From IMG/VR virus record IMGVR_UViG_3300025687_000026, positions 43,061 through 107,060 of that record: DNA of 64,000 bases; one strand, given 5' to 3'. This stretch comes from a virus. Within the stretch, counting starts at the first letter, position 1; each line of letters begins with the position of its first letter. Below are positions 4,059-57,759 of this stretch, in pieces. The translations under genes and the position numbers were made by a program. The notes under the pieces were generated by a model that saw nothing but the letters and a program-made list of their open reading frames with translations, was not told where the DNA came from and made no database searches.

Positions 4059-4154
4059 GTGGCTACTTGCATCGCATGTCAGCGCTCTTGCCTACAAATA
4101 CATCTTGTAGATGGCGAGTGGTGCCTTGATTGCTGGGAGAGCGAGGAAGAATAA
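4059..4154 (+). CDS. 31-aa CxxC...CxxC zinc-finger microprotein (absent from ORF track)
   Basis: GTG start right after the thermosome stop, with GGTGAG RBS. Reads MATCIACQRSCLQIHLVDGEWCLDCWESEEE; stop overlaps the next ATG (TAATG). Confidence 0.6.
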   Translation: MATCIACQRSCLQIHLVDGEWCLDCWESEEE

Positions 4155-4321
4155 TGGGTCGGCTGCTTGACAAGATGAAAGTCAAGTGCCGTCGCTGCGA
4201 GCACGAGCACATCCCTCGTCGTCTGCAAGCCCGGTTTCTTGACGGTGACAAAGAGCGGGTCAGCCTGTGGTGCTGTAGGGCCTGCGGTCACCTATGGGTT
4301 GACAGTGCCTTCAAGCATTAA
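4154..4321 (+). CDS. Zinc-ribbon protein resembling the TFS/TFIIS C-terminal domain
   Basis: CRRC...LQARFLDGD...CRACGHLW resembles the TFIIS pattern CxxC...QxRxxDE...CxxCGxxW. ATG 4154 preferred to TTG 4130. Confidence 0.65.
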   Translation: MGRLLDKMKVKCRRCEHEHIPRRLQARFLDGDKERVSLWCCRACGHLWVDSAFKH

Positions 4322-4329
4322 CTATCACA

Positions 4330-7374: not shown

Positions 7375-7375
7375 T

Positions 7376-7720
7376 CTATTTCACCTCAATCAACAATTGA
7401 ATGCGTAGTTCGTTTTGCGTCGTCTTAAGCACAGGAAGAATCGTGTGCCGAGCGACTGGCGTGAAAGAGTTTGAACCACGGAACTGGACATAGACTTCTT
7501 TCAAGGAGTCCGTGAACTCTTCCGATGCTGGTATAAAACCTTCAACGAGGATGGTGTTGTCGTCGACGATGCGCACCGTCGGATTGAGCGTGATGGCTGG
7601 ACGACCAGCGGCCCCATCAGAACTCGTAGATGGGGTTCCATCGAAACCTATAATCATCTCGTTGATGTTGCTCGCTATCGTGTCGAGCAGCGCCCGTTTG
7701 ATGTGGTCGCTTACCGGCAT
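7376..7720 (-). CDS. Hypothetical tail/baseplate protein (114 aa)
   Basis: Tightly coupled ORF in the tail operon with GAGGTGA RBS. Confidence 0.6.
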   Translation of the reverse strand: MPVSDHIKRALLDTIASNINEMIIGFDGTPSTSSDGAAGRPAITLNPTVRIVDDNTILVEGFIPASEEFTDSLKEVYVQFRGSNSFTPVARHTILPVLKTTQNELRIQLLIEVK

Positions 7721-36959: not shown

Positions 36960-36998
36960 GTTTTCATCTCCTTTTGTTTTTTTTCAGTTGTCGAGTGT

Positions 36999-38345: not shown

Positions 38346-38371
38346 ACTAACCACCCCTCTGTTTGCTCTCC

Positions 38372-38384
38372 TACATAAATAAAG
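38372..38384 (-). promoter_or_regulatory. Putative TATA-like promoter for the protease-capsid operon
   Basis: Minus-strand CTTTATTTATG about 30 nt upstream of the proposed GTG start. Confidence 0.4.
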
Positions 38385-38389
38385 CGGCA

Positions 38390-43820: not shown

Positions 43821-44459
43821 TCAATAGCGGCTACGCATGTATTCTGACGGATGGTAGTCGTCCCTCTCTCCTTCGCCCATTTCAGTCGTGCCTTCAAGAC
43901 CGGGGCAATCATCACCGAAGCCGAAGCGGCAACCAGTGAACTGGTTACCACCGCACTGTTCACACATGGCTTTTACGAGTTCATCTTTGGCTTTGGCCAA
44001 GGCTTCCTCGGCTTTAGAGAGCGTGCCGTTCTCGACTTGGCGAGGAACGCTGTCGTGATGAGGATTCATCTGTTGACCCAGTGACTCGAAGTTCACGGAT
44101 TCAGAAGTTGCACCTTTGTTGGTAACATCCGTGCCGGTGTATTCATGCTGGTTGGTATTGTAGTAGGCGTTGCGAGTTTGACCACCGCTTTCAGCAGCAA
44201 ACATAATGTTCTGAGGTTCAGAGTTGAAGGTGGTGTTGTAACCGGGCTGGGCCTTGCTAACATTAGAGCAACCTGCTTTCATGCAAGAGCCGCCTGCTTT
44301 CATCTTAGAGCCACACTTAGGACAGTCCTTACACTCACAAGGCTCTTTGCCGCAGTCACACTTGGCCTTTTCCAACTCGTCTGCTTTCTCAAGAAGGCGT
44401 TGGGCTTTGTTCAGGAGGTCTTGGGCTTCACGGCTGCTGGGGGAGGGAATAGGCTTCAT
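43821..44459 (-). CDS. Cys-rich hypothetical protein (212 aa)
   Basis: CDCGKEPCECKDCPKCG...; many hydrophobic-x-K-A motifs. Confidence 0.65.
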   Translation of the reverse strand: MKPIPSPSSREAQDLLNKAQRLLEKADELEKAKCDCGKEPCECKDCPKCGSKMKAGGSCMKAGCSNVSKAQPGYNTTFNSEPQNIMFAAESGGQTRNAYYNTNQHEYTGTDVTNKGATSESVNFESLGQQMNPHHDSVPRQVENGTLSKAEEALAKAKDELVKAMCEQCGGNQFTGCRFGFGDDCPGLEGTTEMGEGERDDYHPSEYMRSRY

Positions 44460-44785
44460 GCGGTCACCTCAGTGTTTTTGGCCTGCTCGGCCATCTCATG
44501 GATTTCATCCCATGTCATTTGATGAATCTGAGAGTTAGAGAACTCGTTGTGGCCCTTGATGATAGCGTCATCGTTGGCTCGGAAAGCATCAACTTCGACA
44601 CCTTCAGTCAACGGAGTAGCGGAAGAGACAAAGCCAGCCTTGCGGAGAAGAGCGGATGGGTCACGAATGGCCTTGCGAAGAAGAGCGTTTTCGTGCTTTA
44701 GAGACTGAAGGTCGCTGTCCATGCTCTCCATTTTAGAGATGAGCGTCGTCATAAGTCGCTCAGTAGCCGAAGTTTCTTCGCTCAT
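44456..44785 (-). CDS. Hypothetical coiled-coil protein (109 aa)
   Basis: GAGGTGA RBS; C-terminus MTWDEIHEMA resembles the scaffold C-terminus MSWEEVHQLA. Confidence 0.65.
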   Translation of the reverse strand: MSEETSATERLMTTLISKMESMDSDLQSLKHENALLRKAIRDPSALLRKAGFVSSATPLTEGVEVDAFRANDDAIIKGHNEFSNSQIHQMTWDEIHEMAEQAKNTEVTA

Positions 44786-44794
44786 CTATTCACC

Positions 44795-45148
44795 TCAAGA
44801 ATCGGGGACGAAGCGACCGAAGGTTCCACGGTGAACGCTCATGTTGCGGTGAGTGCGGGCTGCGATGACGGTGCCGGGGAGAACGGCGTCACGCTGGGTG
44901 ACATCGAACTTCTGACCCGTCTCATTCATTTTTTGCAGCATGGGGTTGACCGTGCCGAAGTCAACGGTTTCACGCTCACTCTTCACGATGGCGCTGTGGA
45001 TGTCCTCAGACAAGTAGCCTGCGAACTTGATGACTTCGTTAATGTGACCTTGGGCCTCGTTAGCGTTTCCTTCTTCCAGTGCCTTAGCGAAAGCCTCGCT
45101 GTGCACAGCCATTTTGCGGGCCATTGGGTGCATCTTCAGTAGGTCCAT
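44795..45148 (-). CDS. Hypothetical protein (117 aa)
   Basis: GAGGGG RBS; upstream TATA-like element. Confidence 0.65.
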   Translation of the reverse strand: MDLLKMHPMARKMAVHSEAFAKALEEGNANEAQGHINEVIKFAGYLSEDIHSAIVKSERETVDFGTVNPMLQKMNETGQKFDVTQRDAVLPGTVIAARTHRNMSVHRGTFGRFVPDS

Positions 45149-45179
45149 CTTTTCCCCTCTCGTCCTTCGTAGTGATGCC

Positions 45180-45194
45180 GCATTAAAAGAGGTT
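45180..45194 (-). promoter_or_regulatory. Putative promoter AACCTCTTTTAAT
   Basis: Similar to AACCCTTTTATT upstream of the AbrB-like gene (61202-61213, minus). Confidence 0.4.
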
Positions 45195-46902
45195 ACTGAC
45201 CCCGAGGCATGCGGGAGTTCAACATCGCATCGCTGTTTTGTTGCTGAATGCCGGGAGGCATTCCACGCTGCTGAACGCTTGACAGCGGCGAACCTGAGCC
45301 TGCTGACGAGCGTGCCTGCGGGCTTGCTGGAGAGCGTGGTGTGCGAATACCCATACCCTCACCGCCGGGTTGCGACGGGGGCATTGGAGGCATACCTTGA
45401 GCACCGGCAACTTGAGGAGGTGCACCTTGCATGGGCATTTGACCGGGCATCTGTTGACCCGCCGCAGCCTGTTCCTCACCTCCGGGCTGCTTACGGTAGA
45501 CGAAACGGATGTCTCGGTCACCTTCTTCAAGCAACTCGGGCTTATAGCCCAGCATCGCCATCCGCTGAGCAAGGTTGACTTCCATCTCGTCACGGCGTAG
45601 GCGAGTGATTTCATCCTCTTCCTCGTTGGGGTAGAGCGTCAGTTTCCAATCGGTGACATCCATCTCTTTGAGCATGCGAGGAAACAGGTTTTCGGTGTAG
45701 ACCTTTTGTCCAAACTCAACAGCACGGTTGGTCACAAGAATCTGCAAACCCTCGTTGTTCAACCCACCGGACTTCCCGTTGTCAATCATGAAAATGCTCG
45801 ACACGCCGTAGAAGGCAGCGATACGGTTACGAATCTCGTCACGCACGGCGATGTATTGCATCTCTTCCAGCGTGTCCATGAACTTGACCCAGTTGACTCC
45901 ACCGCGACCGGAGGATGACTCAATACCGACCTTAGGCACATAGTGGGGGTCACGCTCCATTTTCTCGTCAACGGACTTCCAAAACGACTTCATTGACTCA
46001 AGGTTGTCCGTAGTCACGGAGATGATACCCTTAGGTGTGCGCCGCTTTTGGTAAGCCGTGTAGATGTAGTTGTCCATGGCTGTGAGGCTCATGGCTTGAC
46101 GCCACATGGTGTTGACAGGAGCGCGACCGTAGAGTTTGCTTGGGTTGTATTTGCTCAGATGAATGACTTCACCTTTCGTAAAATACTGGTTCTTACCGCT
46201 TCCCGCCATGTTGACATAATGAGCATCAACGAGGCGAGAGCCGCAAGTTTGACACTTGGGTTCTTGACCGGGATAGGCGACTTGGTCGCGGTGAAGGCGG
46301 CAAATCTTGTAACGCCCGCCACGGACACCGCGCTTGTCGGCGATGATACGCATGAAAACAGGGTCACCTCGAACGATTTCCTTGACGCGGTAAAAGGCAA
46401 TTTCACCCGAGTCAGGGTCGACATAGTATTCCTTGATGAGAAGAAGGAAGGCATCGTCGACGATGTTAAGGTCGTTCTCAATCTCACCGAGCACTTGCAT
46501 GAAGGTCTGCTCCATAGCGTTCTCCTGTTCAAGCAGCCACTTCGGGTAGATGACTTGCTCAGGGTCGGGGGAACGAACCTCTCCACCACAGGTTTTGCAC
46601 ATCTCGATGTCGTGGTGAAACTCCTCTTCGCACTCAACGCACTTCTTACGAAACTTCTTCTCCCAGTGATAACCACGACGGAAAATCTCCTGTCGCAATT
46701 TTGACTGCACCGTTCGCAGAATGAGGTTCTCTTGACTCACAGCGTAGAGGGCTGGGAGAGTGATACCTTGCGCCAACACAGGCTCTTGAATGCCCGTTGT
46801 GTAGAGAGGCATCTGCGGTTGAGGCGTCGTTCGACGGCGGAACGGGTTCGCCAACGCTGAAAGGAATCGGCTAACTGGTCCTTGCTCTTCTTCCGCCATC
46901 AC
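45193..46902 (-). CDS. Portal protein (HK97-family) with zinc-finger insertions, 569 aa
   Basis: EVIHL...LYGRAP, PKGII, MQYIAVRDEIRNRIAAFYGV portal motifs; two Cys clusters; Pro/Gln-rich tail. Confidence 0.85.
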   Translation of the reverse strand: MMAEEEQGPVSRFLSALANPFRRRTTPQPQMPLYTTGIQEPVLAQGITLPALYAVSQENLILRTVQSKLRQEIFRRGYHWEKKFRKKCVECEEEFHHDIEMCKTCGGEVRSPDPEQVIYPKWLLEQENAMEQTFMQVLGEIENDLNIVDDAFLLLIKEYYVDPDSGEIAFYRVKEIVRGDPVFMRIIADKRGVRGGRYKICRLHRDQVAYPGQEPKCQTCGSRLVDAHYVNMAGSGKNQYFTKGEVIHLSKYNPSKLYGRAPVNTMWRQAMSLTAMDNYIYTAYQKRRTPKGIISVTTDNLESMKSFWKSVDEKMERDPHYVPKVGIESSSGRGGVNWVKFMDTLEEMQYIAVRDEIRNRIAAFYGVSSIFMIDNGKSGGLNNEGLQILVTNRAVEFGQKVYTENLFPRMLKEMDVTDWKLTLYPNEEEDEITRLRRDEMEVNLAQRMAMLGYKPELLEEGDRDIRFVYRKQPGGEEQAAAGQQMPGQMPMQGAPPQVAGAQGMPPMPPSQPGGEGMGIRTPRSPASPQARSSAGSGSPLSSVQQRGMPPGIQQQNSDAMLNSRMPRGQ

Positions 46903-48125
46903 AGACCCTCCGCATACTTGCCGATGGTATCGGCGTCAACGCCCCACGAATTAAGCAGTTCGGACGACTTCTTGGCGTCATCTTCCCAATTTTTGAAACG
47001 AACCAAGCGTTTCAGTTCTTCCTTTCTCACGGGGTCTGCCTCGTCAATGAAGGCGAGGACGGCCTTTGCCTGCGTGCCCTTCATTTTGAGATGAGGCAAG
47101 ACCCCGTTCAGAAACTTACGGAGGTCTGCCTTGGAATAGAATTGCAGTCGATGTTGACTACGAGTGGAGTTCTTGTGAACCTTGTTGTCCAGTTGCAGGA
47201 CGCCGCAGTCCATCGTTTTGTAGAGGTCTTCACAGTGAACACGACCCCTCTCCCCTGTCGCAATCATTCCAGCACGAGGCTCCCCACGCTCGGTAATGGT
47301 GATGTAACCGTCTGCGTCAAGGAACCCAGCACCGTAAGCCCACACATCCTTCAAGACAAGACCTTCGTTGGTGACACGGACATACGAGCCACGCTCCGCT
47401 CCTTTGATGATGTCGAACTCTTCACCATACATGTTGAGAAGCGTGGTGAACTTGCGGGTTGTGAATGACTTGCGGATTAGCCCCGCTTCATTCATGTCTT
47501 CTTGCAGGTCGCTGACTTGCATTGGCCCTTTCTTCAGTTGTTCGGCTACGAACTCAAGGTAGGACACTTCGGCCTTGGTGAGTTTGTCAGACTGGAACAA
47601 AGCCGTGCGCCACATTTTTCGTGCGTCGCTGCGGTCACGCATAGCCGACGCCCACGCTTGTTGCTCTTCCTCACCCCACACATCCTCATGCTCATCGAGC
47701 ATCTTCATCGTAGCCTCAGCCTTCTCCCAAAGGCTACAGGCTTTTTGAAGCGACACTGCTCGGGATTCGCCAAATTGACGCAGGTGCTTAAGGGACCTGT
47801 CAGACAGTCCGAGTCCTTTGATGCAGTGCTCCATGCCGTCAGCCCACGAGAGGTTGCGAATGGTAAGTTCGGTTTCCAACGCCTTGATGGTTCGGATGTC
47901 ATCAATAAAAGCGTCAATATCACCACTCGTGTCTTTGTTGTGACGACGAGCCTTGCGTAGTCGCTTTACCAACTGGTCCGCAGTGCAATTCATCTTCGCC
48001 TCAAACCACCCGTCGCCGTTAGGAGCGAAACGGTAGGTCTTACGAATAGCCTCGACAACTTCCTCTTGATAGGGGACTTCAGCCTTGATGACAAAATCAT
48101 CCTCGATAAGTGCCGACCCCCACAT
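46899..48125 (-). CDS. LAGLIDADG-domain protein with long helical N-terminus (408 aa)
   Basis: YGAGFLDADGYITI motif and downstream LPHLKMKGTQA. Confidence 0.8.
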   Translation of the reverse strand: MWGSALIEDDFVIKAEVPYQEEVVEAIRKTYRFAPNGDGWFEAKMNCTADQLVKRLRKARRHNKDTSGDIDAFIDDIRTIKALETELTIRNLSWADGMEHCIKGLGLSDRSLKHLRQFGESRAVSLQKACSLWEKAEATMKMLDEHEDVWGEEEQQAWASAMRDRSDARKMWRTALFQSDKLTKAEVSYLEFVAEQLKKGPMQVSDLQEDMNEAGLIRKSFTTRKFTTLLNMYGEEFDIIKGAERGSYVRVTNEGLVLKDVWAYGAGFLDADGYITITERGEPRAGMIATGERGRVHCEDLYKTMDCGVLQLDNKVHKNSTRSQHRLQFYSKADLRKFLNGVLPHLKMKGTQAKAVLAFIDEADPVRKEELKRLVRFKNWEDDAKKSSELLNSWGVDADTIGKYAEGL

Positions 48126-48147
48126 AATTCTACCTCACGAGATACCT

Positions 48148-49056
48148 CTATTTAACGCCCACCATCTTCACGACGGTCGGCTTACCGCCAACACCTTGCT
48201 TCTTGGCTCGCTTGGCCTCGGGACTGACTGGTCGCTTGAGTAGTCGCCAAGAGAGGTCCATTGGTTCACCTGTCTGTATGGTGTTAAACCACAATTGTTT
48301 CGCTTTTGCCCTATCTTCAGCGGGAACATTAGGGTGTTGGCTCACACGATACAATGCTTGATTGAAAGGAGTTGTTCTTTCTAAATCATAAGGTTCTCGT
48401 CGCCTTTCTGATTTACCTTCTTCTGCCAATCTTTGTGAATACACTTCTTCACCCAAAAATGCAGGGAACTCCGCATGGACGATATTGCTATGACCTACTT
48501 CGGGTAATGTTGCTGTGTGCATATCTTCATGTATTACATCACGGATGAAGTTTTCGGGTTCGTTATGCCTACCATGTTTGGTCGGCATGAGTCTTACTGA
48601 TGAATCTAAAACTTCATTCGTTTCGGGGTCATACACAGTTCTGCCAATTTGAGGATGGTCTTCATCCGGTGATGCGATACGAGTCTTGAGCAACCGCATA
48701 GCGATGTCCATTGGTTCGCCCGTCACGATGCGGTCATCGGTGATGTCGTATTGGTAGTCGGCCTTGACAATCGTCGGTTTACCGCCGACACCCTGCTTCT
48801 TGGCTCGCTTACGCTTAGTCGCCGCACGCTTTTGCCCTTCGCTCATGGAGCCACTGGTCTTTGGTGTCTTGTCGCTGACCTTGACGGATGGGCGACACTT
48901 CGGGTAGCCCTTGCTTGAAGTGTTGGCTTTGGAACGACCGCATGGCGGATGCTTGCCGTCTTTGTCCTTGCGTGAAACATCCACCCACTTTTCCTTGAAC
49001 CAACGGTTCAAATCCTTGATGACAAGGACATCGTGACAAGTGCAGCGGTCGGTCAC
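48148..49056 (-). CDS. Modular protein: basic phage domain (RWFKEKWVD...PCGR...YPKCRP) plus inserted HExxH-containing module
   Basis: Internal duplications GEPMDxxxRLLK (x2) and KRAKKQGVGGKPTxVK (x2); VIHEDMH motif. Confidence 0.7.
   Translation of the reverse strand: MTDRCTCHDVLVIKDLNRWFKEKWVDVSRKDKDGKHPPCGRSKANTSSKGYPKCRPSVKVSDKTPKTSGSMSEGQKRAATKRKRAKKQGVGGKPTIVKADYQYDITDDRIVTGEPMDIAMRLLKTRIASPDEDHPQIGRTVYDPETNEVLDSSVRLMPTKHGRHNEPENFIRDVIHEDMHTATLPEVGHSNIVHAEFPAFLGEEVYSQRLAEEGKSERRREPYDLERTTPFNQALYRVSQHPNVPAEDRAKAKQLWFNTIQTGEPMDLSWRLLKRPVSPEAKRAKKQGVGGKPTVVKMVGVK
48176..48810. repeat. Nested imperfect direct repeats: 38 bp (48176-48213 / 48773-48810, 35/38) and 19 bp (48256-48274 / 48706-48724, 17/19)
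   Basis: gtcgg(c/t)ttaccgcc(a/g)acacc(t/c)tgcttcttggctcgctt and gtccattggttc(a/g)cc(t/c)gtc; spacings 597 and 450 nt, both multiples of 3. Confidence 0.85.
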
Positions 49057-49655
49057 GCAGTCACCCCTACCATTTGAGTGTTAGATGCGCCCATCATAGA
49101 AGAAGGGTCCATTGTCGCCTGACGCACTGATATTGGGGTGTTCATATAATTTTCAAGTCTCGCACCGAGACGACCCATTTTACCAGTAGGGCGAGAGTCT
49201 TCCTGTCCTCCTCTGATACGACTTTCTACAGGCTCAAATGCAAAGGCTTCAGGCATTTGACGCATCCTTCCCTGAAGTGTGCGTAGCGTATTCATCAACA
49301 AAGGACGGTCTGTAGGTCCACCGCGACCCGCTGCCATGTAACGCTCAGGTAAAGCATAACCATCGGGAGTTTTGAACTGACCCGTAAAAGACTCAGCCTC
49401 TTGAGCGGTCATAGGAAAGGGTAGACTACCGTCTTGATACGAACGAGGGTCGGTGACCACTTCTGAAGTAGGCTGAGTGAATTGACCAGTAAGATAAGGA
49501 GTCATCATATCTCCAAGAGTAGAATTGGGGTTATTTTGAAGGAATTGTGAAATTGCATCGTAGTTCATCTCAGTAGGGAGGTGCTGATACCCGATTACAC
49601 TACGAGCGCTCACATCCCCTTTCAATAAAAGCCACGCAAAATCAAACGGGTTCAC
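49053..49655 (-). CDS. Hypothetical protein (200 aa) starting with the FDFAWLLLK motif
   Basis: Coupled by overlaps at both ends; AT-richer than the flanks. Confidence 0.65.
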   Translation of the reverse strand: MNPFDFAWLLLKGDVSARSVIGYQHLPTEMNYDAISQFLQNNPNSTLGDMMTPYLTGQFTQPTSEVVTDPRSYQDGSLPFPMTAQEAESFTGQFKTPDGYALPERYMAAGRGGPTDRPLLMNTLRTLQGRMRQMPEAFAFEPVESRIRGGQEDSRPTGKMGRLGARLENYMNTPISVRQATMDPSSMMGASNTQMVGVTA

Positions 49656-49813
49656 TTCTTCTTCCCCCTGAACTTACCCTTGCAGTATTGCACGGCCCAT
49701 CCGTTGGCGTAGGCTGACGGGTAGACCTTGAACTTCCTCTTGGCCGCTGCCTTGCCTTCAGGACACAACTTCTTGCGAAGGTCGTCAAAAGCAATGTCAA
49801 AGGCTGAGGACAT
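49652..49813 (-). CDS. Small basic protein (53 aa; absent from ORF track)
   Basis: MSSAFDIAFDDLRKKLCPEGKAAAKRKFKVYPSAYANGWAVQYCKGKFRGKKK; GGTGA RBS; stop overlaps the next GTG. Confidence 0.75.
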   Translation of the reverse strand: MSSAFDIAFDDLRKKLCPEGKAAAKRKFKVYPSAYANGWAVQYCKGKFRGKKK

Positions 49814-49819
49814 GCGATT

Positions 49820-51253
49820 TCACCACTTTACTTTATCAGCCCAGTATGCAGCACTCAATTTTCCACGGTTGATGTTTTTGGCGTGACGGGCCTTGAACGA
49901 CTCACGACGCTTGCGGTATGAGGAAGACTCGCCCTGTTTCTTAGGAGAGCCTGAAACACCTTGCTGACCGAAGCGAATAGTTTTGACCTTCCCACCTTCC
50001 CGAGCCACGACAACATGGCTCTTTTTCGGATGCTTGGGCGTTCGCTTGGGTTTGTTGAATCCACTCACACCGGCACGAGCGAGACGAGGGTCACGCTTTT
50101 GCGCTTTCAAAACCACCCATGCGAGGTCAGCCGGTGAAGGATAAGCCCGCTGCACCATGTCTTGGTCAGCAAAGAACTGAGTCGGGTCTTCCTCTCGTAG
50201 TGCTGCAAGTTGCGCTTCTCCCTCAGCACCCATAGAGTCAGCACGATTCTTCTGTCGCTGTATTTGCGACATAAGTCGCATGAACTCACGACGCTGGGCG
50301 GGGTCGTAGAAGTTTGGATTCAGACGCATGTCTTGATAATCAGCACCGGCTTTACCCTCACCATAAAGGAAGCGAGCAAAGGCTTCTTGGTCTTCCTCTT
50401 CAGGGTCGAGGGCTTGAGCAGCCTGCATACCGAGACGACTGATGGTTGACTCAGCAAGGGCTGGACCTCGCTCCATTTGTGAAGCAACATCGCTGAAACG
50501 ACGAGCCTGTCCCTTCTCACCGGCTTCACGCAAGCGTTGTGCTTCTTCCATGAGTTCAGCCGGAGTGGCTTTTGATATGAAGGCGGGAGTAAGGGAGGTT
50601 CCCATTCGTTCTTGAGCGAGGGTGGGTGGTGGTAATCCTGCAGGGTTGCTTTCAGTAGGATGAATCAATCCCTGCTCTTTCATCTCTTTCAGTTTCTGCC
50701 GTGTTCTTTCACGAAAAGCCTCTACATCTGCAGGACTTGAGGAAGCAGGAGGTTCTACATGAAAACCAGCGTAGGGGTCGGTTGCGTCAAAACTGGCTCG
50801 CTTCATACTGTCGAAGATGTTGGCGTAGAGGTCTTCTTCTTCTGTTTGAGGCTTCTTTCTGTCCTCTTCTTCTTGTAGACGCTGCATCAACGGCTTGCCG
50901 CTCTCAAAAGCCTCAGCCTCTTCTTTACTTCCTCGTCGCCCACTGTGACCGATTGAAACATCATCAGCGAGTTTTGGGGCTTCTTCTTCAGGTTCAGCGT
51001 TGGGGTCGTCGAGGTCACCTTGTTGGTAACGAACTTGATTCCTAACTTGTCGCCCAGCGCCCATGCGAGCGTTTGCATTTGACAAAACTTTTCCGCGTCT
51101 TGAGAGTTCGCTGCTAAGTTGGTCCATCTTTTCTTGCTTGTCCGGGTCAGCAGCGTTTGCAGGATTCTTGTCTGAGGGTTTCCCTACAGAGATAACGAGG
51201 ACCATGCCCTTGCCTTTCTTTCCAACTTTTTCTTCCTTCATGGTATCATCCAT
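49820..51253 (-). CDS. Modular low-complexity protein (477 aa) with basic C-terminal phage domain
   Basis: DLAWVVLK precedes the basic domain NKPKRTP...IRFGQQG...RRESFKARH...SAAYWADKVKW. Confidence 0.7.
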   Translation of the reverse strand: MDDTMKEEKVGKKGKGMVLVISVGKPSDKNPANAADPDKQEKMDQLSSELSRRGKVLSNANARMGAGRQVRNQVRYQQGDLDDPNAEPEEEAPKLADDVSIGHSGRRGSKEEAEAFESGKPLMQRLQEEEDRKKPQTEEEDLYANIFDSMKRASFDATDPYAGFHVEPPASSSPADVEAFRERTRQKLKEMKEQGLIHPTESNPAGLPPPTLAQERMGTSLTPAFISKATPAELMEEAQRLREAGEKGQARRFSDVASQMERGPALAESTISRLGMQAAQALDPEEEDQEAFARFLYGEGKAGADYQDMRLNPNFYDPAQRREFMRLMSQIQRQKNRADSMGAEGEAQLAALREEDPTQFFADQDMVQRAYPSPADLAWVVLKAQKRDPRLARAGVSGFNKPKRTPKHPKKSHVVVAREGGKVKTIRFGQQGVSGSPKKQGESSSYRKRRESFKARHAKNINRGKLSAAYWADKVKW

Positions 51254-52722
51254 CCATCATTTTTTCTTGGTTCGCCCGTGAGCCAATCATCGAATCCGGG
51301 CATGTAATCATCAAGCATCACTACGCTTCCTCGGAACTCTTTGGTCGCCCAGTTGGCGAGAGCGAGGGACATGGCGAGGTCATCATGCACACCTACGCTT
51401 TCGAGTCGTCCATTCTTCTGCATACCGAAGCGGGTCAATTCCTCTTCGAGTTTGTGCGTAAAACGACGAGAGCGGTCGTCACCGTAAGGCGTCTTAATTT
51501 GACCCTGTTCAAACGCCATCAAGAGTGACATAAACAAACTCTCCTTGCGGGTGCGAGTCGTCATGAAAGTGCGGATTGGAATATCTTGGCGAATATCCTG
51601 CAGTTCCATAGCGAACATACGCTGGAAGTTGTTACCTTCGAGTTCGATGAGGTCGGGCTGAAACTTGTTGTTGAGAAGGATGATGGCTCGCTTCTGTGCT
51701 GCTGACCCCATACCTTGCTCGTGCACACTGCCCACGATTTGCTTGACATCTTCGTCAGGTAGCGTGCGTAAAACTGTTATGGCTGTGTAGTCAGCGTTCT
51801 TGTCCGATGCGATGGCCGTGTCCCAACCAATGAAATGATGACCGAGCACACCGACTCGCTCACCGTTCTCATCATACTCAGCGTCAGCGACATCGAGAAG
51901 TTTGAGTTCATGGTCACGGGCCTTTTCAAGCAGCGTCATTGGGAACATACTGGCGACATCGTGAATTGGTTCACAGAGATACTCACGAGTGAACTGAATA
52001 GCAGGCATCGACATGCGCCGCTGGTCGAGTGCTTCAAGGTTCCAACGCTCAGGCCACAGAGCCACACCTTCCCTGTTGATAGCAGGGTAGGTTTCAACGA
52101 CAAATGTCTCCGTCTTCTCAAGTTGAGCATACAGGTCGTTGTAACTGAACGGTGTGCCCACCATCATCAAGCGACCCGTGTGGTGGAGAACAGGAAGCAA
52201 AACACCGTAAAACCAGTCTGCAGCACGCTGCAGTTCAGACCCAGTGGTTCCCCACAGAATGTCGTCACACAACACAACATCCGGGTGGAAACCACGAGTT
52301 CCACCACCGACTGACTTGGCCATGATACGGCTACCGTTGGTGAACTCGAAGTAGGTCTTACGCCATGGCTTACCCGAGGGAATCAAATCCTTCAAACACG
52401 GTGAGTTCTGAATGTTCTGTCGGATGAAACGCATGTGCTCAAGCGTCTGCTCCAACGAGTGAGAGAAAATCATGATGTGCGTGCCGGGATTGAAAGCAGC
52501 AATCCACAGGGCGTAGGACATGAAGAACACGGACTTACCGTGGTCACGAGATGCCTTCACGCAGTAGTAGCGGTTGTCAGCCAATCCCTTGTCCCACATG
52601 CCGTGGTGGTTAGCATAGTCGAACTCAAGCACCGTCTCAAAGAAGTATTTGAACGACCGAGCGGACATTTTCTTGTCCATCTCGATGACAAGTTCTTGCA
52701 TCTCAGCAGACTTGTCGCTCAT
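51238..52722 (-). CDS. terL: Terminase large subunit
   Basis: Walker A ASRDHGKS, Walker B VLCDD, motif VGTP, nuclease motifs IGWDTA and HDDLAMSLALA. Confidence 0.92.
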   Translation of the reverse strand: MSDKSAEMQELVIEMDKKMSARSFKYFFETVLEFDYANHHGMWDKGLADNRYYCVKASRDHGKSVFFMSYALWIAAFNPGTHIMIFSHSLEQTLEHMRFIRQNIQNSPCLKDLIPSGKPWRKTYFEFTNGSRIMAKSVGGGTRGFHPDVVLCDDILWGTTGSELQRAADWFYGVLLPVLHHTGRLMMVGTPFSYNDLYAQLEKTETFVVETYPAINREGVALWPERWNLEALDQRRMSMPAIQFTREYLCEPIHDVASMFPMTLLEKARDHELKLLDVADAEYDENGERVGVLGHHFIGWDTAIASDKNADYTAITVLRTLPDEDVKQIVGSVHEQGMGSAAQKRAIILLNNKFQPDLIELEGNNFQRMFAMELQDIRQDIPIRTFMTTRTRKESLFMSLLMAFEQGQIKTPYGDDRSRRFTHKLEEELTRFGMQKNGRLESVGVHDDLAMSLALANWATKEFRGSVVMLDDYMPGFDDWLTGEPRKNDGWMIP

Positions 52723-53993
52723 TCCTCAACCCCCATTGTCGACATGTTTTGCTTCTTCCCACTGAACTTTTCAGCAAGAGCGGCACCTGCTTCAGCAGCG
52801 TCTTTACCAGTCGTTGGCTCAGCAATTCCATCTGACGGGTCAGCAGCAGTTGATTGAGGAAACGCAGCAGCCATACCTTCCGCCGTCTTGGGGGGTATGG
52901 GGAGTTTGCTTTGCTCCGTCGATGAAGCGGTGGTTGGCGATGCCGTGACAGGTGCACCGGGTAGTTGTGTTTGATTTGGGTCATTGGGCGCTCGTGATGC
53001 TGGGTTAAATTGAGGCACGGGCTCGAAAACATCGGTGTTGTAAGCGCCTCCTCGCATGTCAAACGGTTGCCTCGCTGTGGTTGGGTTGAGGAGTCGTTCA
53101 ACACCAATCAAACGCTGCTCTGCCCCTCGTAGCGTGCCGGGCAGGTTGTATTGAAGAGCCCTTTGCAGTCGGGCTCGCTCAGCCTCAAGACCGGCTCGGT
53201 ATTCGGCGTAAGGAGGGGGAGTAGGACCTGACGGGACAGGTGCAGGTGTGGGTTGAGCCACGGTGGGCTGAGCGACGGCTACACGATTTGCACGACGGTT
53301 TTCCAAAGCCTGACGCCCTCGCTCCAAACCTTGCTGGGCTCTGCGTTGAACACCAACTGAACCAGCGCCAAGGCGTGCTCCCGCTGCACCAGCAGCGCTT
53401 TCAAGATGAGGGCGAGCAGCACTGGTGGTTGTCATCCCCCGAATAGCAGCCGAGCCAAGACCCTGTTCAAGACCTGCACCTGACGCCCCGGCCTGCTCAA
53501 GCGCAGTGACAGCCGAGAGGCCACCGAGTGCTCCGGCAAGACCAGCACCAAGCCTTCGCCCAAAGACGCCGACCTTACCTGCCCGTTGACCAGCAGTGCG
53601 AGCGTCACCTATCTGCTGTTCAGTCATCGGTCCTTGTCGTCCTCTCCTACCCCCTTCAACAACGCCAGCGAAGCCCTGATGTCCGTAGCGCTCTTGATGA
53701 CTACGAAACTCACCGGCTTTGACCTTGCGCTTCATTTCAGCAAGTTCCCGCCGCTGCTGAGCGGCGAGGTCAGGGTCTTCAAACTCAGAAGGCGAAGCAG
53801 CACCTTCCAAGTTAGGAGCGGTGAGTGCCGCATCTCGCCTTGCGACATAGACTTCTTCGGGCGTTCGCTGCGTCTGCGCTTCCAGCGGCAACCCTTTCGG
53901 AGCAGGGCCGCCAATTAGTTGCTGCTGAGTCAAGTTTCCCGCAGGGTCAGCGTAGAGTTCAAACGATTTCAGCACGAGGACTTTACTCATCAA
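52719..53993 (-). CDS. Hypothetical Gly/Ala/Pro-rich protein (424 aa), possible internal/ejection protein
   Basis: N-terminal VLVLKS; glycine-zipper-like LGAGLAGALGGLSAVTAL. Confidence 0.6.
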   Translation of the reverse strand: MMSKVLVLKSFELYADPAGNLTQQQLIGGPAPKGLPLEAQTQRTPEEVYVARRDAALTAPNLEGAASPSEFEDPDLAAQQRRELAEMKRKVKAGEFRSHQERYGHQGFAGVVEGGRRGRQGPMTEQQIGDARTAGQRAGKVGVFGRRLGAGLAGALGGLSAVTALEQAGASGAGLEQGLGSAAIRGMTTTSAARPHLESAAGAAGARLGAGSVGVQRRAQQGLERGRQALENRRANRVAVAQPTVAQPTPAPVPSGPTPPPYAEYRAGLEAERARLQRALQYNLPGTLRGAEQRLIGVERLLNPTTARQPFDMRGGAYNTDVFEPVPQFNPASRAPNDPNQTQLPGAPVTASPTTASSTEQSKLPIPPKTAEGMAAAFPQSTAADPSDGIAEPTTGKDAAEAGAALAEKFSGKKQNMSTMGVEE

Positions 53994-56329
53994 ATCCCCC
54001 CTACACTGATTTTGACAACCTTGACCACATCCGATGAGATGTTGAGGCGCTTGGCTATGCGCTCCCAGTCACCCATTTGATGGGCGATGGAGCGAATATC
54101 GACAGGTGTGAGATTGAGGTGCTTAGCAAGATGGCGGACACCGTGCTCATCAGCGATGTTAACTGGACGAGTCAAAGCGTGCTTCATGACGCGGTCACTC
54201 TTCATGGCGTCATCGCGCTGCATCTGCTCCATGGCCTTCATCAACCGGTCCGCTTCAGGCAACATGTTGTCCTGACTTTTCATGTATTCTGTAAGAAGAC
54301 GCTGCCGTGGGTCACCAAAAGTCTGCTGGAATTGTCGCTCTTGCTCAGTGAGTTCACCTGTGCCGGGCTTTGGACCAATGCCGCTCAATTCCATGAATTG
54401 ACGCAAGGTCGCTGGGTCAGCCTGACCCACACCCATACGGGCAGCCTGCTGTTCAGGCGACAATTGCCCAATTGGGATGCCCCCGGTGCGGCGAACGGCC
54501 ACAGGTGCAGGTGCTGCCACAGGTGCAGGTGCTGCCTCAGGTGCAGGTGCTGGTGCTGGCGCAGCCATCGGAGGCGTAGCGGCAGGCGGAGCCACCACTC
54601 CTTCAGTCACAGGACGACGAGGTGCAGGTTCAGGACGAGGTGCGGCTGTAGGTGCTACCGATGCTGCTCCCATGGACAAGTCAGTAAAGAGTGGGACATG
54701 CTCAGGGACGGACGGGATAAGTTCCTCAGGGTAACCCATCACCGTTCGCCCAGCAAGACCGGTCGTCGGTAGTTCATCGGGAACAGCACGACGCTCTTCA
54801 TGCCCAAACGCACGAGCCATCATGTCGGCGATACCTTCGATAGCCTGACGGCGAGCGTTGACTTGCTCTTCCTTAATACCCTCGTGACTCACGCCCAAGG
54901 CTTGAAGCGTCTGAGCATCCGGCTGGTAATCTCTCAACTGAGGAAGGGATTCATTGTGATGAGCCAACATGGCCTTGACATACATCTGAGCCATGTTCTT
55001 GTGTGTGCTCCCGTTCTTCGTCGGATGCTTTGTGCCCGACATGAACTCAGGCTCAAGTGGAATGTGCTCACCTTGAAGAGCATGCTCCATCAAATTATCA
55101 AACTGAGTTCGCTTGCCTTCTTCGTCAGGGTCGCCACCGAACGCATCCAACAAGTGACTGAAAATACGAGCACCTGAACTGGGACGCTTCTGACCACCTG
55201 ACTTAAGTCGACCGAATAAGGCCGTGAGGGCCGAAGTTGAGCCCAATTCATTCAGGAGATTTTTCAGCATCTCTTCATTGGACAAGACCGTCTTAAGAGG
55301 CTGCATCGTGTAGTTGGTCCCGCCAGCAGTTTGAGCCGTGTTGATAGGCACCTGCACATCAGGGATAATATCGGGATTTTCAGCAGCCCGCTTCAAAGCC
55401 TCCTTGATATGACCACGAGCACTGCGCATGGTTTCAGACGGTGGCGTTTTTTGCGAAGCCAACTTGTAGTGCATCAAATCAGGCATGTGGTGCGCAACCG
55501 ACCACGACTGCACTGAGTCAAATGCGGGATTAAAGTTGACACCGCCGGGAGCGTTGGTGATGTGTGAATCAGGAAGTTGTCCACCCTGACCAATGACATC
55601 TCCACCGCGACCTTTCAAACGCCGACCGGCTGGATGAAGGTCGTCGATTGAGATGTGGCCTCGTGTCGTCCACTCCATGTTAGCAATGTCGTCGAGTCCG
55701 TATTCTCGGACAATGGCCGCCAGTTGTTTCCAGTAAGGAATCGAATAGGATTCAACAAAGTGACCGACCTTTTCGTTTCGGTTCGGTCGATTGGTAAAAG
55801 TCGTAACAAAATGTCCATCAACGCTACGGTTAGGACGACGGGTCGGTTCCATGTTTGCGTTGTAAGGAGTGGCCTTGAGTTTTCGCCACTCCATGGAGTC
55901 AACATCAGGTAGATGGTGCGCTCCGCTTCGGTCCTTATGCGTGTCATTGTATTCGTTAATGGCTCGCTGTAGGAGTTCCTTAGCCAAGCGTGGGTCGTAA
56001 CCGGCTCGCTCAAGTGCCTCACCGAGATGATGCCATACACCGTCGTGCCCGTGGTGATGGTCGAAGCCGTCAGTGTGATAGGTCATCTCCCCGTGTTTGC
56101 CTCGTTGAAACTCACCCTCAAGCAATTCACCCATGCCCGCATGACCGGAAGGGTGAGGTCGAGAGTTACCGTAGTGAGCAAAAAGTGGGACATCCGGCCC
56201 TTCGGGGTCCGGGTTAATCGCTTCGGGAGGGGGGTTCGTCAAAAGATGCGGCACACCGTTGAAAAAAGCGTAGTTACCGTGCCCTTTCAGCAGAATGTCC
56301 GCTGACTTCAACACGAACACGGGCCTCAT
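53990..56329 (-). CDS. Hypothetical protein (779 aa), His-rich N-terminus, Pro/Ala linker, C-terminal HTH-like end
   Basis: N-terminal FVLKS/ILLKG motifs; WERIAKRLNISSDVVKVVK at the end. Confidence 0.65.
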   Translation of the reverse strand: MRPVFVLKSADILLKGHGNYAFFNGVPHLLTNPPPEAINPDPEGPDVPLFAHYGNSRPHPSGHAGMGELLEGEFQRGKHGEMTYHTDGFDHHHGHDGVWHHLGEALERAGYDPRLAKELLQRAINEYNDTHKDRSGAHHLPDVDSMEWRKLKATPYNANMEPTRRPNRSVDGHFVTTFTNRPNRNEKVGHFVESYSIPYWKQLAAIVREYGLDDIANMEWTTRGHISIDDLHPAGRRLKGRGGDVIGQGGQLPDSHITNAPGGVNFNPAFDSVQSWSVAHHMPDLMHYKLASQKTPPSETMRSARGHIKEALKRAAENPDIIPDVQVPINTAQTAGGTNYTMQPLKTVLSNEEMLKNLLNELGSTSALTALFGRLKSGGQKRPSSGARIFSHLLDAFGGDPDEEGKRTQFDNLMEHALQGEHIPLEPEFMSGTKHPTKNGSTHKNMAQMYVKAMLAHHNESLPQLRDYQPDAQTLQALGVSHEGIKEEQVNARRQAIEGIADMMARAFGHEERRAVPDELPTTGLAGRTVMGYPEELIPSVPEHVPLFTDLSMGAASVAPTAAPRPEPAPRRPVTEGVVAPPAATPPMAAPAPAPAPEAAPAPVAAPAPVAVRRTGGIPIGQLSPEQQAARMGVGQADPATLRQFMELSGIGPKPGTGELTEQERQFQQTFGDPRQRLLTEYMKSQDNMLPEADRLMKAMEQMQRDDAMKSDRVMKHALTRPVNIADEHGVRHLAKHLNLTPVDIRSIAHQMGDWERIAKRLNISSDVVKVVKISVGGI

Positions 56330-57759
56330 GCTCGGTTACCCCCTCGTCCGACGAGTTGTCCAATGGGGTCAAGTCCCCATGTTCGAGGGTCGTTTTCGTC
56401 TTCCGTCCCTCCTTCACCACGAGTGGTTTGCTTTGGATTGTTACCGGGGTATTTTGGTAGCGTTGACGCCGCACCAGCGGTGTCAGGCGCACCCATGTTT
56501 TTCTTTTTGTCATCCTTGTCTTTCATGCGACGCATGAGTTGTCGCATTTCACGGAGAGCAGTGCGGGCTTCAGCAAGAAGGTAGTGATTTGTGCCCGCTT
56601 TCAGGAGGTCACCTTCAGGCACAGGGTCTTCGCTCATGGTCACCATACCCGGCATACTTGGTCGGTTTAAGTGAGGCATGCGCATCTTAGGCGGCTGAAT
56701 TGGGGGAGCACGAACAGGATGAAGACGAGGTCGAGGGGCGCTGGGCATCCGAACCTGCCCAAAGGGCAGTGCCGCTCCGCTTTGAGGAGCAATTTGACCA
56801 CGAATGCTCTGCTGCTCTTGGTAGCCTCGCCACTGTCCGTAGGCCTGAGGGTCCTTGGACATTGGCTGCTTACTGGCGATACCGCGGTGAGACATCTCAA
56901 CTGACAAGTGAGGTTGCATCAACCCCGTCTTGCGACCCATGGGGAGGTTGCGAGACAACAATTTAGCCCGAGCCGAGGTGCCTGAGCGACCGGTGTAGCC
57001 GCCACGAGGACGCTTGAACTTACCAGTGGAGGGCCGCCACTTGGCTCGCTCTTCAGTCTTACGACGCTTCTCTTGCTTACGCTTGGACTTCAACAATTCA
57101 GACCAAGCGTAGACCATCGGCTCACTGGCGTTCTTCTGTTGGAACTGGGGGTCAAACTCAGGGTCAGGAATGGAATCATCGAGTTCGGGTGGTAAAGGCA
57201 TACGAGCAGTCAACTCAGCCTCTTCTTCAGCGATTTTGTAAGCATCCTCCAAATTATCAGCATAACCCAAAGCCATGGCTTCCATAGCAAGTTCATACAA
57301 CTCATCCGAACGGTCGAACTTGAGAATATCAGACCAAGCGTAAGCCATCGACTCACTCATCTGAATCATTTCACCACCGGCAGCACCGGGGCCCTTAGCC
57401 TGAGCAGCGAGGCTGGTCAAGAATCCACCGGCACCAGCAGGTTGCGTTGGTTCAGTGGGTGACTCACGAGGTTTGAACAAAGACTCTTCTTCTTCCATTC
57501 CCTCTTCGGGTTTGTCACCAAGACCCATGTGATGACGACGCACCTTGATGTGTCGAATCTGACGGTCCTCCTTTTCTTCCCGCTCCTGCTTTTTCTGCTT
57601 GCGGTCCATCCGTGCTTCTTTGTCACGAGCATCTTCCAAGCCAGTAGGGGTTTCCTCGTCTTCGTGGTTTGCACGGAACATGTGCGAAGACTCGGAGCGT
57701 GGAGCGTAGATGCGGGTGTCCGAGCCACGACCCATCATGCCCTCAGTCATCCATGTCAC
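56326..57759 (-). CDS. Modular low-complexity protein (477 aa) with an acidic insert between duplicated motifs
   Basis: SESMAYAWSDILK ... SEPMVYAWSELLK; basic/Pro-rich C-terminal half. Confidence 0.65.
   Translation of the reverse strand: MTWMTEGMMGRGSDTRIYAPRSESSHMFRANHEDEETPTGLEDARDKEARMDRKQKKQEREEKEDRQIRHIKVRRHHMGLGDKPEEGMEEEESLFKPRESPTEPTQPAGAGGFLTSLAAQAKGPGAAGGEMIQMSESMAYAWSDILKFDRSDELYELAMEAMALGYADNLEDAYKIAEEEAELTARMPLPPELDDSIPDPEFDPQFQQKNASEPMVYAWSELLKSKRKQEKRRKTEERAKWRPSTGKFKRPRGGYTGRSGTSARAKLLSRNLPMGRKTGLMQPHLSVEMSHRGIASKQPMSKDPQAYGQWRGYQEQQSIRGQIAPQSGAALPFGQVRMPSAPRPRLHPVRAPPIQPPKMRMPHLNRPSMPGMVTMSEDPVPEGDLLKAGTNHYLLAEARTALREMRQLMRRMKDKDDKKKNMGAPDTAGAASTLPKYPGNNPKQTTRGEGGTEDENDPRTWGLDPIGQLVGRGGNRA
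57098..57357. repeat. 29-bp imperfect direct repeat (57098-57126 / 57329-57357, 26/29), spacing 231 nt
   Basis: tcagaccaagcgta(ga/ag)ccatcg(g/a)ctcact. Confidence 0.85.

Follow-up and report, generated by a model that had tools for sequence, protein, structure and literature searches.

Tagged genes and the repeated peptide

The analysed stretch of 64,000 nucleotides (the window) is part of the genome of a 107-kb magrovirus-like archaeal tailed virus. Magroviruses have Marine Group II archaea as hosts, which rank with the most abundant surface-ocean microbes (PMC5434244). The adjoining genes of an S78 protease and an HK97-fold capsid protein were found at 35787-38393, outside the interval 43821-57759 covered by the original prediction. 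At 48148-57759, five proteins carried seven copies of a strong tag, [S/G]-E-P-M-[D/E]-x-A-W-(S)-x-L-L-K, while about 0.5 copies were expected by chance. The tagged genes were situated between terL and portal, directly upstream of terL, and in one further same-strand cluster; this second cluster, beyond the window at genome positions 3033-8950, does not adjoin head genes and contains an HMGL-like enzyme gene. Every feature given with coordinates below lies on the minus strand.

The 302-aa protein (48148..49056) was composed of a leader ending in VLVIK14, a DUF5872 module, a tag, an HExxH module, a further tag and a basic tail, and both DUF5872 and phrog_23735 matched it from residue 15 on. Copy 1 (TGEPMDIAMRLLK, residues 112-124, 48685..48723) and copy 2 (QTGEPMDLSWRLLK, residues 261-274, 48235..48276) scored 19.9 and 23.0 bits with a profile HMM trained on copies from relatives, and their DNA was 78% identical (repeat D4). 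N-terminal tags were present in a 200-aa protein (NPFDFAWLLLK|G, residues 2-12, 49620..49652, 12.8 bits) and in a 53-aa protein (MSSAFDIAFDDLRK|K, 49772..49813, 12.2 bits); in the latter a known module starts directly past the tag, because phrog_27331 matches residues 14-53. The 477-aa protein at 49820-51253 contained a divergent internal tag, SPADLAWVVLK|A (K383, 50105..50137), which was recognized by regular expression and weakly by HMM. Phrog_7595 matched residues 385-477 of this protein, and a stand-alone 89-aa homologue in Celeribacter phage P12053L begins 2 residues before the aligned A384. Another 477-aa protein (56326-57759) had copy a (QMSESMAYAWSDILK|F, residues 133-147, 57319..57363, 7.3 bits) and copy b (NASEPMVYAWSELLK|S, residues 210-224, 57088..57132, 17.9 bits), the latter followed by a conserved basic C-terminal domain. 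Its orthologues showed SEPMxxAWSxLLK where copy a stands, and had one to four tags in this region with hypervariable inserts between them.

A regular expression for the strict tag, [AS][WFM]x(1-2)[LIV][LR]K, gave nine matches in the 44 ORFs of the window against 0.52 in residue shuffles (maximum of four in 2000 shuffles), and seven of the nine fell within the five proteins at 48148-57759. The shared motif ending in Lys that had been predicted on unrelated ORFs near terL and portal was thereby confirmed; all peptides listed in that prediction were present in their ORFs, and the phenomenon was larger than first described. Six copies in the window were scored at 7-23 bits by the HMM, with the DLAWVVLK copy merely marginal. 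Among IMG/VR relatives, 270 distinct copies were collected by regular expression, placed N-terminally, internally or C-terminally (83 N-terminal and 187 internal), and 17 tags were at most 10 aa away from a C-terminus; by HMM, 45 of 238 scored copies ended inside the first 20 residues. Nine proteins of this genome begin with the tag, seven at genome positions 3033-8950 and two in the window.

Eleven residues of the tag were conserved; their pattern was amphipathic and the Trp invariant. The Lys was invariant too, and conservation collapsed directly after it: in copies of relatives the information content was about 4 bits at L-L-K and at most 1 bit from +1 onward. When EPM was used as an unbiased anchor for testing the invariance of Lys, all contexts with an A-W core (140 of 208 distinct contexts) had K at +10 or +11, the remaining 68 being without the core. 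Ser within tags was encoded by both TCT and AGT, and the codons of Leu and Pro varied while the peptide was constant. Since both Ser codons were used and tag copies inside one gene were 74-78% identical in DNA, selection acts on the tag peptide. Codon usage was skewed, with GCT making up 81-96% of Ala and CGG 51% of Arg (six-residue type), against 38% and 5% in the background.

No Pfam or PHROG family was matched by the tag, and no paper mentioning it was found in the literature searched. The AF2 model of the 302-aa protein, made without alignment, had a pLDDT of 41.7 and was too poor to judge the tags as free helices. Several known elements were rejected as candidates: a Sec, Tat or pilin-type signal, as no hydrophobic stretch or RR motif lies behind the tag; a 2A-like ribosome-skipping peptide, as there is no NPGP-type end; and the first helix of one conserved domain, as the following modules are unrelated and known families begin past the tag.

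The tag is portable, standing before, between or behind unrelated modules, and PHROG and Pfam families defined on other phages begin directly past its Lys. Its existence, portability, invariant Lys, boundary position and lineage restriction were established. In relatives, ORFs with unrelated modules contained up to seven tags per 1000-1200 aa (seven in L170:43-3615, five in each of two L181 ORFs). The layout is that of a polyprotein with sites as linkers, several unrelated modules in one ORF being split by a repeated site. The pieces between tags were modules of 67-380 aa, including GNAT-like (weakly by Pfam), HExxH and ParB-like ones (both read from the sequences). Of the predicted polyproteins releasing small peptides, the multi-tag layout was therefore upheld and the small peptides were not seen. 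Inserts between tags differed even among close relatives, and one module was 60-82% identical to roseophage and cyanophage genes, which shows that genes pass between viruses of bacteria and of archaea and enter the tag system.

Lysine junctions in the head proteins

A candidate maturation site of the capsid protein (35787-36959), SELLK34|A35 (36855..36872), was indicated by conservation in homologues and by an AF2 model. Across 122 homologues (30-56% identity), position 34 was K in 95, R in 13 and Q in 6, P3 before it was hydrophobic in 97, and the N-terminal prefix was 16-108 aa long. These distant homologues were drawn from a 50%-cluster library, since the direct homologue listing gave only sequences of at least 83% identity, which were uninformative on the site. 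In the AF2 model (pLDDT 86), which matched the capsid proteins of Mic1, SU10 and HK97, with encapsulin shells also among the structural matches, Lys34 lies between disordered residues 20-31 and the ordered HK97-fold body. No match was obtained for the capsid protein in the PDB by phmmer; a profile search of the PDB found 6j3q, whose capsid protein begins at about residue 40. A conserved D-[LM]-E-x-x-Y-Y-G element lies upstream of K34, so that residues 1-34 might be retained after maturation of the capsid protein.

The protease with its C-terminal scaffold domain (36999..38303) was assigned to S78 by Pfam (PF04586, E 4e-9) and to head maturation protease by PHROG. Its leader, ending in SLSLLK30|G (38304..38393), was hypervariable in sequence and length across 76 matching ORFs, while the junction [LIV]-x-[LIV]-[LI]-K-[GAS] was kept, K30 being 100% conserved and its surroundings 60%. 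K-[ASG] sites were located at residues 217, 275, 293, 315, 342, 362, 392, 409 and 431, and these site lysines were over-conserved compared with their surroundings (+0.23, other lysines +0.03; Mann-Whitney p 0.016). Endings of this kind at capsid protein residue 34 and in the protease/scaffold had been noticed in the original prediction, and both stand on these homologue comparisons. The phi-phi-K ending of the tag (phi, a hydrophobic residue) marks, besides conserved scaffold sites, leader/body junctions of the capsid protein, the protease and a 779-aa protein. The leader of the last (MRPVFVLK|SADILLK|G, 56285..56329) varied among orthologues, with [IL][IL]K|[GA] kept right ahead of the conserved body. 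A 424-aa protein may be a weaker case, its leader MSKVLVLK|S (53967..53993) being read from the sequence, with VLVRK|S in the single orthologue recovered. The site of the LAGLIDADG protein, DFVIK|A, which had been given as another example, was not kept in orthologues and so is probably due to chance.

In head-region proteins, the looser pattern phi-phi-K-[ASG] had 23 occurrences where 5.5 were expected (z 7.5), and in other proteins 10 where 7.5 were expected. Leader/body junctions no further than 35 residues from the N-terminus held many of the sites. No excess was detected in head proteins with R, E, D, Q, N, T, S, A or G at P1, with reversed order, or with other P1' classes. When the whole genome was compared by function, as suggested together with the prediction, the enrichment was again found in head proteins (21 observed against 5.5 expected; tail 7 against 5.1; replication 16 against 8.8). 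Behind the Lys of strict tags the residue is not restricted to the predicted A, S or G: internal copies are followed by E, R, S, A or M, and E, R or M are frequent there, unlike the A, S, G or T at the sites of the capsid protein, protease and scaffold.

The pattern was defined on this window, and its replication came from relatives and not from an unrelated system. A second magrovirus lineage, found via related loci and having a capsid protein that matches the 50%-identity homologue P0125 at 43-48%, repeated the excess, with a pooled ratio of 4.1 in head proteins, 1.9 in tail proteins and 0.9 for R at P1; its protease leader ended in FILK|[AS]. Loci retrieved with P0144 were halovirus-like and acidic, and were left out. 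No K-[ASG] excess existed in the head proteins of the related halovirus HVTV-1 (46 against 43 expected); as an outgroup it shared only the K|AD site of the capsid protein (MSK|ADN at residue 102). For the head proteins of this virus, an excess of phi-phi-K-[ASG] that is specific for K and for orientation is established against a null based on composition only, not on secondary structure.

Proposed role of the tag

The tag would be an amphipathic helix about 12 residues long, N-capped and portable, with an internal form, (S/G)-E-P-M-(D/E)-x-A-W-x-L-L-K, and an N-terminal form, M-x-(P/A)-F-(D/E)-x-A-W-x-(V/L)-L-K. It may mark the accessory proteins of this lineage for incorporation into the assembling prohead, and its docking partner would probably be the scaffold, the protease or the inside of the capsid. 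Its end is a phi-phi-Lys bond, which would fit the specificity deduced for the virus's own HK97-type S78 prohead protease. This protease would have three substrates: the capsid protein, shortened behind Lys34; its own leader, cut off behind Lys30; and its own scaffold domain, broken up at the conserved K-[A/S/G] sites. The multi-tag ORFs would be cargo polyproteins, which are loaded as one unit, cut into modules inside the head and travel with the DNA. Docking, packaging, cleavage and delivery of the tagged proteins are what we infer from these patterns, and for the core of the proposal, loading into the prohead with cutting by the S78 protease after Lys, we see roughly even chances. Speaking against it are the tags close to C-termini, the E, R or M often found behind the Lys of tags, the conserved element upstream of K34 and the lack of a K-[ASG] excess in the head proteins of HVTV-1. 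The interpretation first attached to this region is in this way partly supported.

Part of the same evidence could be read as docking without any cutting, the tag being a position-independent short linear motif that binds one hub (scaffold, capsid interior, portal or another) with the Lys as a binding residue. Nothing would be set free by cutting a tag at the very C-terminus, and such tags speak for docking rather than release. The occurrence of tags at N-termini and internal positions as well, the unconstrained residue behind the Lys, and eleven conserved residues with Trp and amphipathic pattern, more than a protease subsite needs, would all suit such a motif. However, conservation ends exactly at the Lys, the last three residues match those at the phi-phi-K sites in the capsid protein, the protease and the scaffold, and stand-alone homologues start at, or within 2 residues of, the position after Lys, which makes a purely binding role unlikely, though it is the strongest of the competitors. 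It is quite improbable that the tag is just a linker with a cleavage site for a cytoplasmic viral or host protease, whose products act unpackaged in the infected cell. Polyproteins with up to seven tags, modules that look enzymatic and the second cluster away from head genes, with its HMGL-like gene, could be explained in that way, but cutting the N-terminal tags of single-module proteins would remove just the tag, terL and portal lie among the tagged genes on the late strand, and the phi-phi-K code is enriched specifically in head proteins.

The skewed codons of the tag and the variation of inserts among close relatives would also be expected if the tag DNA were a homology patch for cassette exchange and the peptide a passenger. 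This is the least probable of the readings and we give it very little weight, as copies in the same gene share only 74-78% of their DNA, Ser, Leu and Pro codons vary under a fixed peptide, and N-terminal tags on single genes require no cassette logic. Cassette exchange at tags could instead be a side effect of a tag with another function. As for the loose sites, K, A and E abound in the scaffold and in several head proteins, which are also helical, and only composition was controlled in the excess test, so the excess might be a by-product of Lys/Ala-rich coiled coils without any link to a protease. In the same proteins, though, neither phi-phi-R, -E or -Q before [ASG] nor the reversed order was in excess, the site lysines were over-conserved and many sites sat at leader/body junctions within the first 35 residues, and a by-product is therefore held to be highly improbable.

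The proposal of prohead loading and cutting after Lys could be extended into a general programmable cargo system. Helix-tagged modules would be docked singly or in strings of up to seven, cut after Lys and injected as fast-evolving effectors of host takeover or anti-defence, and new modules, including bacteriophage genes, would be recruited by landing behind a tag. This extension is put forward tentatively, the balance being somewhat against it. To our knowledge neither magroviruses nor their hosts are in culture, and a tag readable from sequence would allow probable capsid-carried, host-delivered magrovirus proteins to be listed from metagenomes alone. Most of these tagged modules are unknown, and they differ from one close relative to the next. 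With the candidate code, an archaeal maturation system of the HK97 type would have a concrete protease specificity, and a short portable tag could be a loading handle for HK97-type particles.

Comparison with known systems

In phage T4, the capsid targeting sequence (CTS) is cut off at its C-terminal end by the prohead protease gp21, which is of a type that cleaves after Glu, and the cargo is injected with the DNA. This CTS is an N-terminal peptide of about 10 residues on unrelated, non-essential head-internal proteins, conserved in IPII and IPIII, and it sends internal proteins into the scaffold core, as it does GFP and other foreign proteins (PMC9958956). The magrovirus tag likewise is a short N-terminal peptide common to unrelated proteins of one virus (83 distinct copies). 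It differs in having no sequence similarity, an S78 (HK97-type) instead of a gp21-type protease, a candidate site after Lys and an archaeal host; it is also internal or C-terminal, punctuating polyproteins with up to seven copies. In the giant phages phiKZ, 201phi2-1 and SPN3US, an A/S/G-x-E protease motif recurs in the capsid protein and in numerous ejection or inner-body proteins, and incorporation requires the propeptides (PMC7411985, PMC10052503). A simple candidate protease motif is similarly shared by capsid and other head proteins here, with a different motif and protease family, and a conserved helical tag upstream of the site is not described there for the giant phages.

The variable effectors of MuF-type polymorphic toxins and head-internal effector fusions are encoded beside portal and delivered with the DNA. 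No MuF (Phage_Mu_F) domain was found when the tagged proteins and polyproteins were scanned against Pfam, and modularity in the magrovirus comes from a tag of 12 residues instead of a carrier domain. At the equivalent position, HVTV-1 has a 1313-aa 'zeta toxin' protein.

In HK97, the delta domain of gp5 is removed by gp4 after Lys103, so the N-terminal extension ends in Lys before the N-arm; no tagged cargo is known from that phage. The magrovirus likewise combines an S78-type protease with an HK97-fold capsid protein; the candidate N-terminal extension of the latter would also end in Lys but be only 34 residues long, and the scaffold is fused to the protease. The cargo-loading peptides of encapsulins are short, possibly terminal, and direct unrelated cargo into an HK97-fold shell, being uncleaved and usually one per cargo. 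Compared with those motifs, the magrovirus tag has another consensus, E-P-M-D-x-A-W-x-L-L-K, and occurs in internal as well as terminal copies. If true, the programmable cargo system would be the first address tag with a protease code described for an archaeal virus, and would make the HK97 fold the common ground of capsid targeting in phages and cargo loading in encapsulins.

Genome context and head genes

All genes of the window from 4.3 kb to 64 kb were carried by the minus strand. By Pfam and PHROGs, terL (51238-52722), the portal gene (45193-46902), an S78 (HK97-type) prohead protease that carries a fused helical scaffold domain (36999-38393) and an SU10/HK97-type capsid protein (35787-36959) were identified, with the tape measure and tail genes downstream. 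The portal and capsid proteins shared 27-34% identity with those of the Haloarcula siphoviruses HVTV-1, HCTV-1 and HCTV-5, and nothing bacterial was matched in the same comparison. The whole record is a single contig of 107,060 bp (the window being bases 43061-107060), and its marine relatives number hundreds in IMG/VR, with contigs reaching about 110 kb. This genome and its relatives fit the description of the magroviruses of Marine Group II archaea (PMC5434244).

A LAGLIDADG-type ORF (46899-48125, minus strand) resembled its positional counterparts in relatives over the first 7-11 residues alone (MWGSA[LF][IV]...), and the bodies of those ORFs were different proteins. The pattern points to a homing endonuclease that displaced or inserted into a variable gene immediately upstream of the portal gene. 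Two small conserved proteins (44456-44785 and 44795-45148, minus strand) lay between the portal and a 1857-aa protein. The former carried ...[L/M]LRK↓AG[F/M] at about residue 48 and the latter MDL[L/K/Q]K↓M at its start (arrows mark the supposed cut), both kept in all relatives; they may represent further protease sites or scaffold-like adaptors.

The tag and its carriers

The original prediction had quoted Lys-ended peptides from unrelated proteins around terL and the portal, and every one was found in the window ORFs. A regular expression for the core of the strict tag, a putative helix of about 12 residues of the E-P-M-D-x-A-W-x-L-L-K type, matched nine times in the window ORFs versus 0.52 times per shuffle (maximum 4 in 2000 shuffles), and seven of the nine matches fell in five proteins at 48148-57759. 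On 80 related loci retrieved with terL, there were 138 matches on the coding strand and 23 on the opposite strand; the P-M/F context lay upstream in 118 of the 138, which comprised 74 distinct versions. With a profile made from such copies of relatives, six window copies were recovered at 7-23 bits, while the DLAWVVLK copy scored marginally.

Adding the genome and 201 loci to the window brought the number of distinct copies to 270. The internal consensus was x-[T/M/A/K]-[S/G]-E-P-M-[D/E]-x-A-W-[S/R/Q]-(x)-L-L-K and the N-terminal one M-x-[P/A]-[F/M/I]-[D/E]-x-A-W-x-[L/V/I]-L-K. Positions P, M, A, W, L, L and K each carried 3-4 bits, and from the first residue past K the information content was at most 1 bit. 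When EPM was the only anchor, all contexts with the A-W core reached their K at +10 or +11. M, A/W and L-L are spaced such that the hydrophobic residues would lie on one helix face, with an S/T-x-P cap beginning the helix.

By HMM count (238 copies), the tag ended within the first 20 residues in 45 copies and lay no more than 10 residues from the C-terminus in 17, with one to seven tags per protein. Three ORFs of 1000-1200 aa in relatives (L170:43-3615, L181:5260-8493 and L181:1094-4174) were strings of unrelated modules of 67-380 aa with a tag after every module, the last included; Pfam gave only weak GNAT hits, and HExxH and ParB-like GHxxRHR motifs were seen by eye. Orthologues of the 477-aa protein at 56326-57759 had a conserved 130-aa head, a basic tail and 1-4 tags separated by hypervariable, often acidic, inserts. 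Outside the window, on the same strand, a cluster of seven proteins (genome G000:C1:3033-8950, locus L202) had a tag at every start, including MRAFDAAWAVLK, MSGAFDAAWAVLK and MVRPFDAAWSIIK, and none of the seven matched Pfam or PHROGs.

An untagged HMGL-like gene (HMG-CoA lyase family, PF00682, E 2e-24) stood in the middle of this cluster, and one of the tagged proteins contained a ParB-like GHEGRHR motif. In a second magrovirus lineage (L233:18020-18472 and L250:17816-18359), small proteins within the tail-gene block had tag-like N-termini (…ALSRGWSILK↓N, MTEAFHVAFGVLK↓E and MSEAFERAFGTIRK↓A), so tagged genes extend beyond the terL/portal neighbourhood. In the tail region here, one 5660-aa ORF (9126-26108, minus strand) lay between tape-measure-like and fibre-like genes, and no tag was detected in it by the tag HMM.

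The exact back-translated E-P-M-D-x-A-W-x-L-L-K pattern, expected by chance well under once per collection, was found in 41 IMG/VR stretches, every one from a contig of 5-110 kb, and matched twice in 596 Gb of prokaryotic genomes. One of the two (L260, NZQM01000026.1, 16.4 kb), labelled as a Parvibaculum sp. MAG, encoded an orthologue of the 56326-57759 protein with the tag QMSEPMDIAWQLLK; it is clearly a piece of a magrovirus that was put in a bacterial MAG by a binning error. The other was rejected as chance, since its frame was full of stops. In these collections the strict tag is lineage-specific, and the magrovirus literature searched made no mention of motif, polyprotein or cargo.

Junctions ending in lysine

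By family matches, the tag Lys is a domain boundary, past which families defined on other phages begin. In the 53-aa protein, the tag (49772-49813) takes up residues 1-14 and phrog_27331 covered 14-53; phrog_7595 covered 385-477 of the 477-aa protein at 49820-51253 whose tag ends at K383, and DUF5872 and phrog_23735 matched the 302-aa protein (48148-49056) from residue 15, past VLVIK14. The phrog_7595 module, a C-terminal basic module of 94 aa (49823-50104, minus strand), had 60-82% identity to hypothetical proteins that stand alone in roseophages (CRP-9, SIO1), Lentibacter/Celeribacter phages and cyanophages. For genes shared between archaeal and bacterial viruses, this similarity is unusually high. 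The 89-aa homologue of Celeribacter phage P12053L started two residues ahead of the position aligned with A384, so a cut past K383 would free exactly the stand-alone protein of those phages.

Among 122 capsid protein homologues (30-56% identity, from a 50%-cluster library), 95 had K in the K34 column, against 13 with R and 6 with Q; P3 was hydrophobic in 97, and [A/S/T]-D-[A/D]-P-[V/L]-L-T-T-T-G followed; the HVTV-1 equivalent was MSK↓ADN at residue 102. Just ahead of K34 was a low-occupancy, unconserved loop, and the whole prefix was anywhere between 16 and 108 residues long. It is not junk, since residues 11-18 form a conserved D-[L/M]-E-x-x-Y-Y-G element. The AF2 model (homologue alignment, pLDDT 86) predicted a short helix at 9-17, disorder at 20-31 and, from about residue 35 on, a confidently modelled body. 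It matched the capsid proteins of Mic1, SU10, A-1(L) and HK97, and the Mic1 protein (6j3q) starts at about residue 40 of the capsid protein here.

The protease leader varied in length and sequence across 76 matching ORFs, with [L/I/V]-x-[L/I/V]-[L/I]-K-[G/A/S] always ahead of the conserved D-L-V-V-A-G-Y-A-S start of the S78 domain; in the second lineage it ended ...FILK↓[A/S]. The 779-aa protein (leader at 56285-56329) had the same pattern, variable with the junction kept. In the scaffold domain, lysines in phi..K-[ASG] sites were conserved 23 points above their surroundings versus 3 for other lysines (Mann-Whitney p 0.016).

The loose code phi-phi-K-[A/S/G] (two hydrophobic residues, Lys, then A, S or G) is real. 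It occurred 23 times in the proteins at 35.8-57.8 kb versus 5.5 expected from composition (z 7.5), only three of these sites being tags, and 10 times versus 7.5 in the other window proteins. No excess was observed with R, E, D, Q, N, T, S, A or G replacing K, with reversed order or with other residue classes past K. By region of the genome, the loose code was counted 21 times versus 5.5 expected in head proteins, 7 versus 5.1 in tail proteins and 16 versus 8.8 in replication proteins, and the second tag cluster had 4 versus 0.8. Phi-phi-K lay within the first 40 residues of 9/17 head proteins and 7/9 in the second cluster, versus 8/55 replication and 2/17 tail ORFs.

The second lineage was found via P0125, a homologue 50% identical to the capsid protein here, and its capsid proteins were 43-48% identical to P0125. 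Its portal-to-capsid-protein block had 9-15 sites versus about 2.9 expected in each of 13 loci, which are mutually related and make one sister-lineage replication instead of 13 independent tests. Pooled ratios were 4.1 in the head block versus 1.9 in the tail block, and control ratios were 0.9 for R, 0.6 for E and 0.3 for reversed order. HVTV-1 head proteins had no K-[ASG] excess, and the code may therefore be confined to the marine lineage. The LAGLIDADG example of the original prediction, DFVIK↓A, was not conserved and is probably chance.

Possible roles of the tag and known systems

We give an even chance to a two-part signal, in which the tag helix would dock the protein in the assembling prohead and the phi-phi-K end would be a substrate of the S78 protease, which would also trim the capsid protein, itself and its scaffold. 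Docking, packaging, cutting and injection are proposed steps that fit the sequence data. A tag that only docks would agree with the existence of C-terminal tags and with the unrestricted residue past the Lys, and is a distinctly weaker candidate, at perhaps one chance in five. Less likely than both are processing of the polyproteins in the cytoplasm, which we consider improbable, and a primary role of the tag DNA as a recombination patch, which seems more improbable still.

The tag copies of the 302-aa gene were 78% identical in DNA and the two of the 477-aa gene at 56326-57759 were 74% identical; over all copies, TCT and AGT were both used for Ser, and the codons for Leu and Pro varied too. 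On this evidence, selection on the tag is at the peptide level. A partial skew in codon use, towards GCT for Ala and CGG for Arg, hints that copies also share descent or have exchanged sequence. A 48-nt direct repeat (48166-48213 and 48763-48810, 85% identical) encoded KRAKKQGVGGKPT[I/V]VK twice in the 302-aa protein, outside both tag copies, so that nested repeats bracket its HExxH segment.

The two-part signal would work on the same principle as the capsid targeting sequence of T4 (PMC9958956) and the propeptide systems of giant phages. Compared with these systems, the protease family and the predicted cleavage residue here are different and the host is archaeal, and what would be new is that the tag punctuates long polyproteins of predicted cargo.
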